Counted from the stretch's first letter, positions 47,255-50,691 are shown. The stretch is DNA of 64,000 nucleotides from Octopus vulgaris (GCA_951406725.2 OX597829.1:24304001-24368000); one strand, 5' to 3'. Notes: generated by a model not told the origin, from the sequence alone. Program-made: numbers and translations.

Positions 47255-47404
47255 TCATCTTGTTGTAGTTGAGGGCTCTTCGTTGACGCCCGACGTCACT
47301 GAGAGGTGGCCCTCGAAGTCGCTGGAAATGGAGATCTCCAGGTCCAAATTCTTGGACGGCTGGTGGTGTTGATGGTGGTGGTGGTTGTGGTTGCATCTTG
47401 CATT
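47255..47404 (-). CDS. Candidate terminal coding exon of an unidentified host gene
   Basis: Polypyrimidine tract plus AAG acceptor; NARCNHNHHHHQHHQPSKNLDLEISISSDFEGHLSVTSGVNEEPSTTTR*; third codon positions strongly G/C in this frame. Confidence 0.5.
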   Translation of the reverse strand, partial: NARCNHNHHHHQHHQPSKNLDLEISISSDFEGHLSVTSGVNEEPSTTTR

Positions 47405-50400
47405 CTTTACGTTAAAAAAAATGGTAAAAAGAACAACAATAATATTAACAATAACAATAACAACGGTTTCAAATTTTGGCACAAGGATAGCATCTTCAGG
47501 GAATGGGGTAAGTCGATTACATTGACCCCAGTGCTCAGCTGGCGTCAGTGCATGAATGGTACTTATTTCATCAATCCCGAAAGGATGAAAGGCAAAGTTG
47601 ACCTCAGTGGAATTTGAACTCAGAACATAAAGATGGCCAAAATGCTGCTAAGCATTTCGTCCAGCATGCTAGTGATTCTGCCAGCTCACTGCCTTAAATA
47701 AAATAATAAATGCGCCCTTTTAAAGCCTAGCCAGGCTCATGGGCCTGGTTTGCCGGTTTCAGCGGCATATGTGTTCCCCAGCTGGATGGGACGCCAGTCC
47801 ATCGCAGCATTACTCATTTTTGCCAGTGGAGTGAACTGGAGCTACGTGAAATGAAGTGTTTTGCTCAAGAACACAACGCGTCACCCGGTCCAGGAATCAA
47901 AACCACAATCTTATGATCATGATGCTGACACCTTAACCACTAAGTCACATGCCTCCACACTGCCTTAGATAATAATAATAATAATAACAATAATCCTTTC
48001 TACTATAGACACAAGGCCTGAATTTGTGGGGAGGGGTATAGTCTATTGCATCAACCCCAGTGTTTCACTGGTACTTAATTTATTGACCCCGAAAAGGTGA
48101 AAGGCTAAGTTGATCTCAGCAGAATTTGTACTCAGAATGTAAAGACAAATGAAATGCTACTATTCATTTTGCCCAGTGTGCTAACAATTCTGCCAACTTG
48201 GCACCTAAAAATGATGATGACGATGAGGACGACGATGATGATTGCAACAACATTTCAGCAAAGGCTGTGACAGAAAATAAGAATTATAGGATTTTCTCCA
48301 TAAAGACTGACCATATTCTTGAAGCATTTTATAATTGCTAGATATAATTTTGGAGGATAAAAGAAACTAACAGTATTAAATCAAATACTTTGCAATATTA
48401 TGTGATAACAGAATGATACCAAAGGAATTGAAAAAAATTGAGAAATATCAGTCCCTAGCCACAGAAATGAAGAAATTGTAGAAGACTAAGACTGCAGTTA
48501 TTCCTTTGGTAATTGGTGTATTTGGCACTAGAGTATAGCCAAAAGGTTGAAGGAACCTGGTATTGAGACTCACATAGTCAACCTACATTAAAGTGCAATT
48601 CTATACACTGTGAAAATCCTAAGAAAGATTCTTGAAATTTGAGGACACTTGTTGTCATCAAGCCTCAAGATAACAATGTAGTAAATTAAATTAGCATATA
48701 ATAACTTTGGAATAATAGTAATATTAACAATCACAAGTTGGAATAATATGGTAGGAATAAATGTGAAGACAGAACATCTACAAAAAATAGTGTTGCTAGT
48801 AACTTCACAAATTCTCCACAGAGTTCTTGAAATTTTTATGAAGAATGTTACTGTAGTCTACTGGTTGTGCACAGTTGTTATGTTCAGCAATGAAAGCACT
48901 GTATTGAACAAGATAATAATAATGATGATGGTGGTGGTGATGGTGATGATGATGATGATGATGATGATGATGATAGTGATGATGATGATGGTGATGGTGA
49001 TGGTGATGATGATAATGATGATATCATCATCATCATCACCATCACCATCATCATCATCATCATCACCATCACCATCATCATTATTATTATCTTGTTCAAT
49101 ACAGTGCTTTCATTGCTGAACATAACAACTGTGCACAACCAGTAGACTACAGTAACATTCTTCATAAAAATTTCAAGAACTCTGTGGAGAATTTGTGAAG
49201 TTACTAGCAACACTATTTTTTGTAGATGTTCTGTCTTCACATTTATTCCTACCATATTATTCCAACTTGTGATTGTTAATATTACTATTATTCCAAAGTT
49301 ATTATATGCTAATTTAATTTACTACATTGTTATCTTGAGGCTTGATGACAACAAGTGTCCTCAAATTTCAAGAATCTTTCTTAGGATTTTCACAGTGTAT
49401 AGAATTGCACTTTAATGTAGGTTGACTATGTGAGTCTCAATACCAGGTTCCTTCAACCTTTTGGCTATACTCTAGTGCCAAATACACCAATTACCAAAGG
49501 AATAACTGCAGTCTTAGTCTTCTACAATTTCTTCATTTCTGTGGCTAGGGACTGATATTTCTCAATTTTTTTCAATTCCTTTGGTATCATTCTGTTATCA
49601 CATAATATTGCAAAGTATTTGATTTAATACTGTTAGTTTCTTTTATCCTCCAAAATTATATCTAGCAATTATAAAATGCTTCAAGAATATGGTCAGTCTT
49701 TATGGAGAAAATCCTATAATTCTTATTTTCTGTCACAGCCTTTGCTGAAATGTTGTTGCAATCATCATCGTCGTCCTCATCGTCATCATCATTTTTAGGT
49801 GCCAAGTTGGCAGAATTGTTAGCACACTGGGCAAAATGAATAGTAGCATTTCATTTGTCTTTACATTCTGAGTACAAATTCTGCTGAGATCAACTTTGTC
49901 TTTCACCTTTTCGGGGTCAATAAATTAAGTACCAGTGAAACACTGGGGTTGATGCAATAGACTATACCCCTCCCCACAAATTCAGGCCTTGTGTCTATAG
50001 TAGAAAGGATTATTGTTATTATTATTATTATTACTATTATCTAAGGCAGTGTGGAGGCATGTGACTTAGTGGTTAAGGTGTCAGCATCATGATCGTAAGA
50101 TTGTGGTTTTGATTCCTGGACCGGGTGACGCGTTGTGTTCTTGAGCAAAACACTTCATTTCACGTAGCTCCAGTTCACTCCACTGGCAAAAATGAGTAAT
50201 GCTGCGATGGACTGGCGTCCCATCCAGCTGGGGAACACATATGCCACTGAAACCGGCAAACCAGGCCCATGAGCCTGGCTAGGCTTTAAAAGGGCGCATT
50301 TATTATTTTATTTAAGGCAGTGAGCTGGCAGAATCACTAGCATGCTGGACGAAATGCTTAGCAGCATTTTGGCCATCTTTATGTTCTGAGTTCAAATTCC

Positions 50401-50691
50401 ACTGAGGTCAACTTTGCCTTTCATCCTTTCGGGATTGATGAAATAAGTACCATTCATGCACTGACGCCAGCTGAGCACTGGGGTCAATGTAATCGACTTA
50501 CCCCATTCCCTGAAGATGCTATCCTTGTGCCAAAATTTGAAACCGTTGTTATTGTTATTGTTAATATTATTGTTGTTCTTTTTACCATTTTTTTTAACGT
50601 AAAGAATGCAAGATGCAACCACAACCACCACCACCATCAACACCACCAGCCGTCCAAGAATTTGGACCTGGAGATCTCCATTTCCAGCGAC
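47318..50691. repeat. Spacerless inverted duplication (arms 47318-49022 and 49023-50691)
   Basis: Mirror ORFs in the track (48748+/48884-; 47306+/50392-); centre GAT|ATC inside a (GAT)n tract. Confidence 0.95.
48260..48915 (+). mobile_element. Two old R4/Dong-like 3' fragments (mirrored at about 49095-49760)
   Basis: EKYQSLATEMKKL..AVIPLVIGVFG..ILYTVKILRKIL and EHLQKIVLLVTSQILHRVL. Confidence 0.7.

Follow-up and report, generated by a model that had tools for sequence, protein, structure and literature searches.

Results

Structure of the locus

The window, i.e., the whole stretch of 64,000 nucleotides of Octopus vulgaris DNA that was analysed (GCA_951406725.2 OX597829.1:24304001-24368000), is assembled without any N and contains a 1.7-kb inverted repeat that overlaps a candidate coding exon. 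Self-alignment places its left arm Y, which includes its own version of a central (TGA/TGG)n array, at 47318-49022 on the plus strand, and its right arm Y', the inverted copy, at 49023-50691 on the minus strand. The inverted pair was recovered as two ungapped blocks of 679 and 1011 nt, 99% complementary, which belong to one alignment of left-arm positions 47318 to about 48983 with right-arm positions 50691 to 49023; blastn of arm against arm gave 1610 columns at 99.4% identity. The near-identity of arms of this length, first noticed by reading the sequence alone, was thus found again by alignment. Among the 25 longest of the 818 inverted pairs in the window, the next-best measures only 305 nt at 79%, and since none of these comes close to the palindrome, it is not a product of chance.

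The layout is X-Y-Y'-Z, gapless, with the inverted copy adjoining its template. The centre at 49022/49023 lies in a head-to-head microsatellite, (ATG)33.7 followed by (ATC)19.7 (48922-49081, no strand assigned), as expected from the earlier placement of the centre in (GAT)n. The description of the palindrome as spacerless holds insofar as there is no unique spacer; its perfect part, however, comprises just 16 bp (49015-49030), and about 42 nt stay unpaired because the two arms' versions of the (TGA/TGG)n compound array differ in length (33.7 vs 19.7 units). At the distal junction (50691) the arm does return into a microsatellite, in the precise form of (CAT)20(ATA)24 (50691-50820, plus strand), which is presumably the original continuation Z, and a single base of microhomology is shared. 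Z starts with the reverse-complement class of the array that ends Y. The fold point is therefore a short inverted repeat, the 16-bp perfect centre in (GAT)n/(ATC)n, and the return is nearly without homology. Close to the arm's outer end, 13 bases in from it, a short perfect palindrome (47331-47340) could have played a part in terminating the copying, or none. Elsewhere in the window, a second, older inverted repeat (18419-18883) has 167-nt arms that are 86% complementary and stand 131 nt apart, possibly a MITE or a decayed fold-back.

Outside the centre, the arms differ by four substitutions (47763, 47914, 48104, and 48106) and one 6-bp indel in a microsatellite, an (AAT)n run (47970 / 50034-50039). 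The inner 826 bp (48107-48933) are identical, and every difference falls in the outer half, which the sequence-only reading had seen correctly while counting about five substitutions in place of four and an indel. That all five differences lie within the outer 790 of 1616 bp has a P of 0.028, computed after the pattern had been seen.

Content of the arm and its surroundings

The candidate exon (47255-47404, minus strand) was delimited by its reading frame and GC3 and comprises 49 codons followed by TGA, preceded by a pyrimidine tract and AAG. GC3 is 0.76 in its frame and 0.49 and 0.43 in the two remaining frames of the minus strand, a contrast that gives modest support to a coding exon. The outer end of the left arm holds the putative acceptor and the first 87 nt of this exon (47318-47404), in agreement with the earlier description; their antisense copy lies at 50605-50691 on the plus strand by alignment, with the copied acceptor adjoining at lower coordinates. 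No homologue of the exon frame scored at E<=10 among nine candidates (proteins up to 2000 residues), none of 33 candidates scored for the alternative exon frame, and the downstream ORF from 47086 had zero homologue candidates. An Atlas search of large clusters with the exon peptide returned nothing usable, and a 29-nt exon pattern had 0 matches in JGI metagenome and viral contigs. HMMER's one match to the exon peptide, the 981-aa repeat protein P0002, consisted of 10 stretches at 42% and was rejected as summed repeat noise. The exon frame reopens for 134 codons after the TGA (46850-47254, minus strand), with a Cys-rich stretch from an ATG at 47086; this region could be a UTR or part of a longer exon. 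Folded locally in the absence of the second arm, the RNA of 47180-47720 shows nothing unusual (z -1.44).

Further inward, the arm carries three interspersed repeats on the plus strand (47466-48226; approximately 47466-47709, 47695-47959, and 47968-48226) with 69-89% similarity to further copies in the window, which we take to be SINEs; this part of the arm has a very high summed depth in public sequencing runs. It is followed by the decayed 3' end of a non-LTR retrotransposon (48240-48912, plus strand), recognized from its reading frames and presumably the endonuclease region of an R4/Dong-like element, which shares 31% identity over 26 aa with a similar relic at 7063-7332 (E 6e-4). The distal flank contains another decayed non-LTR segment (50863-51159, plus strand, reading frames), which we also assume to be R4/Dong-like. 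A Pfam search of both relics gave no match; in the Atlas, the distal-flank relic had matches of at most 0.88, including one cluster with RVT_1 on 11% of its members, which is a lead only. A palindromic transposon is an unlikely source of the repeat, the arm being a patchwork of exon, SINE-like, and LINE-like pieces.

The window is rich in other elements. A non-LTR reverse transcriptase frame broken by a stop (RVT_1, E 6e-14) occupies 9602-10750, and four tandem copies of a 197-bp unit with 91% match, each ending in (AT)n, lie at 18995-19745. A young LTR retroelement (36370-40236) has zinc knuckle, aspartyl protease, RT-like, DUF7047, and integrase matches over separate frames. This Gypsy-type element is flanked, as if by a giant target-site duplication, by a 483-bp direct duplication (35879-36361 / 40236-40718; 7 mismatches, 98.55%). 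Its LTRs (36370-36641 and 39965-40236) differ at 4 of 272 positions, and since this is the same degree of divergence, the duplication may date from the insertion.

Ancestral bases in the two arms

The substitutions between the arms were polarised against the other SINE copies within the window. The right arm has the base of the other copies at 47763 (two of five copies informative, both in agreement), the common base at 47914 (two copies agree, one has a third base, and two are uninformative), and the common base at 48106 in 7/7 copies; at 48104 it is the left arm that has the common base (six of seven copies, one gap). The right arm thus matches the SINE base at 3/4 sites and is free of scattered indels. 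A noisy single read would not produce this pattern in the right arm, and each of the two arms has at least one derived base. These bases rule out an unpolished single-read chimera and are compatible with a polished one. From the sequence, the arms would be either slightly diverged paralogues or a composite of two haplotypes. If the haplotypes had been merged cleanly, about 16 substitutions would be expected at an assumed heterozygosity of 1% (P(<=4) 0.0004; 0.10 at 0.5%).

Allele patterns in public sequencing runs

Four of 24 candidate runs, all available as contigs, a form in which rare variants are lost, were compared: X1 and X2 (organism label A), X3 (label B), and the RNA-labelled X11; six metatranscriptome rows (shares 0.05-0.07) were left out. 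X1-X3 may all come from animals other than the source of the assembly. The comparison covered one arm and no unique flank, namely the part of the right arm beyond the centre together with 24 nt of the distal array. Listed were 32 contig pieces, beside 129,754 unlisted ones, and the joints were the best-supported 15 of 456. The repeat-rich distal end was masked, and the zero depth in the last two bins of all four runs reflects this masking and speaks neither for nor against the junction. The contigs closest to the distal junction stop at 50647 in X1, X2, and X3, inside a short CAC/CAT run, and are therefore uninformative about it.

A 57-bp segment (49155-49211, no strand assigned) is present in both window arms and in X1, deleted in X2, and found in both states in X3. 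One X2 contig bridges it with 80 and 176 letters on either side at a depth of 34.7, its neighbours have depths of 39, 31.9, and 36.5, and the depth bins leave no room for the non-deleted form. Since X2 lacks 57 bp that both arms have, it is not the source animal. In X3 the two forms have depths of 27 and about 22.5 (deletion on 55%), which sum to the 49 of the next contig. The deletion has the same ends under the two organism labels and takes away the larger part of a weak DNA hairpin (-5.4 kcal/mol).

X1, the top holder, has window-identical contigs over 49075-49790 with depths of 109, 53.3, and 103.5, the half-depth region being 49232-49508 (no strand assigned; 53.3 against neighbours of 109 and 103.5). 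A further branch of about 51, not among the listed contigs, is implied by the bin residual; the window-like allele thus makes up 0.50 of the full depth, a 50:50 split where a heterozygous palindrome predicts 67:33. At full depth the X1 contigs run unbroken over 49070-49231 and 49509-49790, where the arms are identical, and the inner contig stops at 49070, the last base common to both window arms; the corresponding contigs of X2 and X3 continue to 49061. An extra T at 50587 relative to either arm occurs in all three DNA runs (87.4/87.4 in X1, 32.1/68.6 in X2, and 42.1/146 in X3).

The arm thus behaves as a two-allele locus in 3/3 DNA runs compared. With splits that are either 1:1 or all-or-none, three copies can be excluded for X1 and X3; a heterozygous palindrome was rejected in either run, with observed shares of 0.50 and 0.545 against the expected 0.67 or 0.33. 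The splits fit two copies, or four copies with the arms converted in cis.

Sequencing depth

The depth baseline was taken from contigs of other SINE loci among the best-supported 15 of 456 joints (14 in X1, 11 in X2, and 15 in X3, leaving out joints that had no contig in the run). With medians of 60.6, 19.9, and 50.7, respectively, the arm depths of about 105 in X1, 35.5 in X2, and 49 in X3 correspond to about 1.7x, 1.8x, and 1.0x, with the proviso that the baseline rows were selected for support, may be haplotype-level contigs, and contig depth is not copy number. In X3, a second contig at 49474 has a depth of about 47, similar to the arm depth of 49. The X3/X2 ratio is 1.97 for repeat-summed depth and 1.48 for arm depth, which falls between the expectations of both models. 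The excess in X1 and X2 fits a duplication in label A, or a larger number of haplotype-level contigs there. X11 has no piece at the exon copy, which is not evidence against expression; its depth relative to X2 is 0.16 for the arm and 0.12 for the SINEs, and this RNA-labelled run looks like low-depth DNA.

Discussion

Origin of the palindrome

The likeliest single reading, to which we give about an even chance, is that the palindrome is an artefact of the assembly. Every reading starts from one arm that would end in a head-to-head (GAT)n/(CAT)n microsatellite, a short natural hairpin; under the artefact, X-Y-(GAT)n/(CAT)n-Z would still be the true locus. Y' may have entered the assembly through a fold-back or template-switch chimera at this hairpin, and the consensus would then have used reads of both haplotypes on both arms, leaving real alleles at a few heterozygous sites and an equal homopolymer length in both arms. 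Y' would also have been joined to Z in the assembly. A fold-back seeded at a microsatellite fits the anatomy of the locus. Under the artefact, the allele patterns, the branch point in X1, the baseline of X3, and the T-run common to the arms all find an explanation. In particular, the end of the inner X1 contig at the last base common to both arms is expected if the two microsatellite versions are alleles in one animal, and the extra T at 50587 in three runs fits an uncorrected consensus.

Palindromic reads have reportedly been seen after whole-genome amplification. Fold-back reads account for 0.55-0.6% of genomic ONT reads, and assembly graphs can become tangled by them (PMC12870357). According to that source they are virtually absent from PacBio HiFi data, which counts against an artefact if the assembly is HiFi. 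Hairpin-forming satellites are described in another study as reducing long-read coverage (10.64898/2026.07.13.738322). The fold-back artefacts share with the octopus locus the succession of a sequence and its own reverse complement without a spacer, but as described in PMC12870357 they are symmetric single reads, whereas here there is a gapless return to the flank and the substitutions are allele-like. The gapless Y'-Z join with one base of homology would be difficult for an assembler to make and is the weak point of an artefact; a plain fold-back read should yield just the central junction. Against an artefact also speak the right arm, which with the SINE base at 3/4 substitutions is not a noisy copy, the arm depth in X1 and X2, which at 1.7-1.8x the median of other loci would be compatible with two arms, and the number of arm differences, which is too small for a clean haplotype merge at 1% heterozygosity (P 0.0004).

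A real inverted duplication that is young or private to the sequenced animal and absent from X1-X3 is possible, though we hold it rather doubtful. After a break, or the stalling of a fork, within the (GAT)n/(CAT)n hairpin, the 3' end would have folded back and been extended by copying over 1.67 kb, and the new end would then have been joined to the (CAT)n end. Later slippage would have made the centre asymmetric and partly stabilised an allele with no effect or a mildly harmful one; should the exon be real, its minus-strand pre-mRNA would pair over its own 3' splice site. The gapless X-Y-Y'-Z layout, with both junctions at one microsatellite and one base of microhomology, resembles the fold-back and end-joining route in yeast (PMC11724301) and the switch-and-return events that create inverted repeats (PMC5453318). 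Both arms are of one haplotype (non-deleted, with the same T-run), each with at least one derived base, X2 is excluded as the source animal by the 57 bp, and central asymmetry stabilises palindromes in mammals (PMC1803023). On the other hand, the X1 branch lies exactly at the first difference between the arms, which suggests standing alleles and not private changes after duplication; should X1 be the source animal, its 50:50 split rules out a heterozygous palindrome; and the published fold-back duplications at breaks are mostly 5-34 bp, at least about 50x shorter (PMC11724301). Long palindromes with little or no spacer are unstable (PMC7999016, PMC1803023), which favours an artefact. The same two-allele splits would also arise from four copies, if a real palindrome stood on both homologues in label A (X1, X2), were absent in label B (X3), and were converted arm to arm; this we think improbable. 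Conversion would keep the inner half identical and let inner polymorphisms appear as 0:4, 2:2, or 4:0, and the depth of 1.7-1.8x in X1 and X2 against about 1.0 in X3 points the same way, an argument limited by the fact that contig depth is not copy number. The confinement of all five differences to the outer 790/1616 bp (the post hoc P of 0.028) is likewise consistent with it, but the unbroken full-depth inner contigs of X1 would explain this clustering as well. Inverted repeats maintained by conversion, with arms of about 2.2 kb, do exist in Caenorhabditis, but those described in PMC1803023 have spacers of 126-414 bp and flank gene pairs. Furthermore, the 57-bp deletion with identical ends, found in all of X2 and half of X3, would have had to cross between single-copy and palindromic chromosomes and then reach the second arm, X2 has no branch at 49069 (its contig continues to 49061), and selection should disfavour the fixation of a duplex that covers a 3' splice site in use.

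Possible consequences for RNA

The sequence-only reading, a fold-back that could affect RNA, may or may not be right: the allele patterns in 3/3 DNA runs are explained more simply by a single-copy arm than by two, while depth in two of these runs hints at the opposite. If the preferred assembly artefact is true, there would be no long dsRNA. If the palindrome is real and the exon is used, what the locus offers for dsRNA formation, editing, splice masking, and siRNA production at the candidate exon is a geometry, in which a minus-strand transcript would reach the antisense copy first and could then form a duplex spanning the pyrimidine tract, the AG, and 87 bases of the exon. Hyper-editing acts mainly on long near-perfect duplexes, and among the organisms in PMC5625713 octopus and frog rank highest in their share of these loci. 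Editing of the acceptor A would destroy the splice site. Since a fixed duplex over a needed acceptor would be costly, a young allele or an artefact seems more likely than a regulatory element. The most far-reaching reading is a palindrome with 1.67-kb arms and no unique spacer that is homozygous in one lineage, absent in its sister, and kept perfect in its inner half by conversion between the arms. It would lie in the last intron of a gene, where a duplex of about 1.6 kb would cover the 3' splice site and 87 coding bases, and a single duplication would thus have given rise to a lineage-specific editing-complementary sequence controlling the use or recoding of the terminal exon. This reading is in our opinion very improbable.

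Comparison with known systems

A search of mainly open-access literature, supplements excluded, listed no paper dealing with this locus or with palindromes of kilobase size in the introns of coleoids. The octopus repeat shares its X-Y-Y'-Z layout, priming at a short inverted repeat, and low-homology rejoining with the yeast fold-back duplications (PMC11724301) and with the four-point template switches of the Ripley model (PMC5453318). It differs in size, 1.67 kb compared with mostly 5-34 bp in yeast (PMC11724301); the four-point study deals with short-range events (PMC5453318), whereas the octopus locus is known from the duplicated allele alone. Kilobase arms with more than 99% identity are also found in the conversion-maintained repeats of Caenorhabditis and the human Y chromosome (PMC1803023, PMC7999016). 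These have spacers of at least 126 bp and contain whole paralogous genes, whereas the octopus arms lack a unique spacer and consist mostly of transposon relics. A near-perfect intramolecular duplex is the preferred substrate of ADAR (PMC5625713), which would apply here if the palindrome is real and transcribed. The hyper-edited substrates known from that source are paired repeat copies or palindromic transposons; here the putative stem would include a duplicated acceptor and a piece of an exon.

Implications

If the palindrome is an artefact, the locus holds no biological feature, and its value is that of a warning: in repeat-rich genomes, false palindromes that mimic editing substrates can be seeded by (GAT)n/(CAT)n arrays in head-to-head orientation. 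If it is real and young, it would be an unusually long germ-line fold-back duplication of a known kind. Should the least likely reading prove true, the locus would represent the one-step origin of an editing-complementary sequence over a coding exon, and lineages with and without it would provide a natural comparison.
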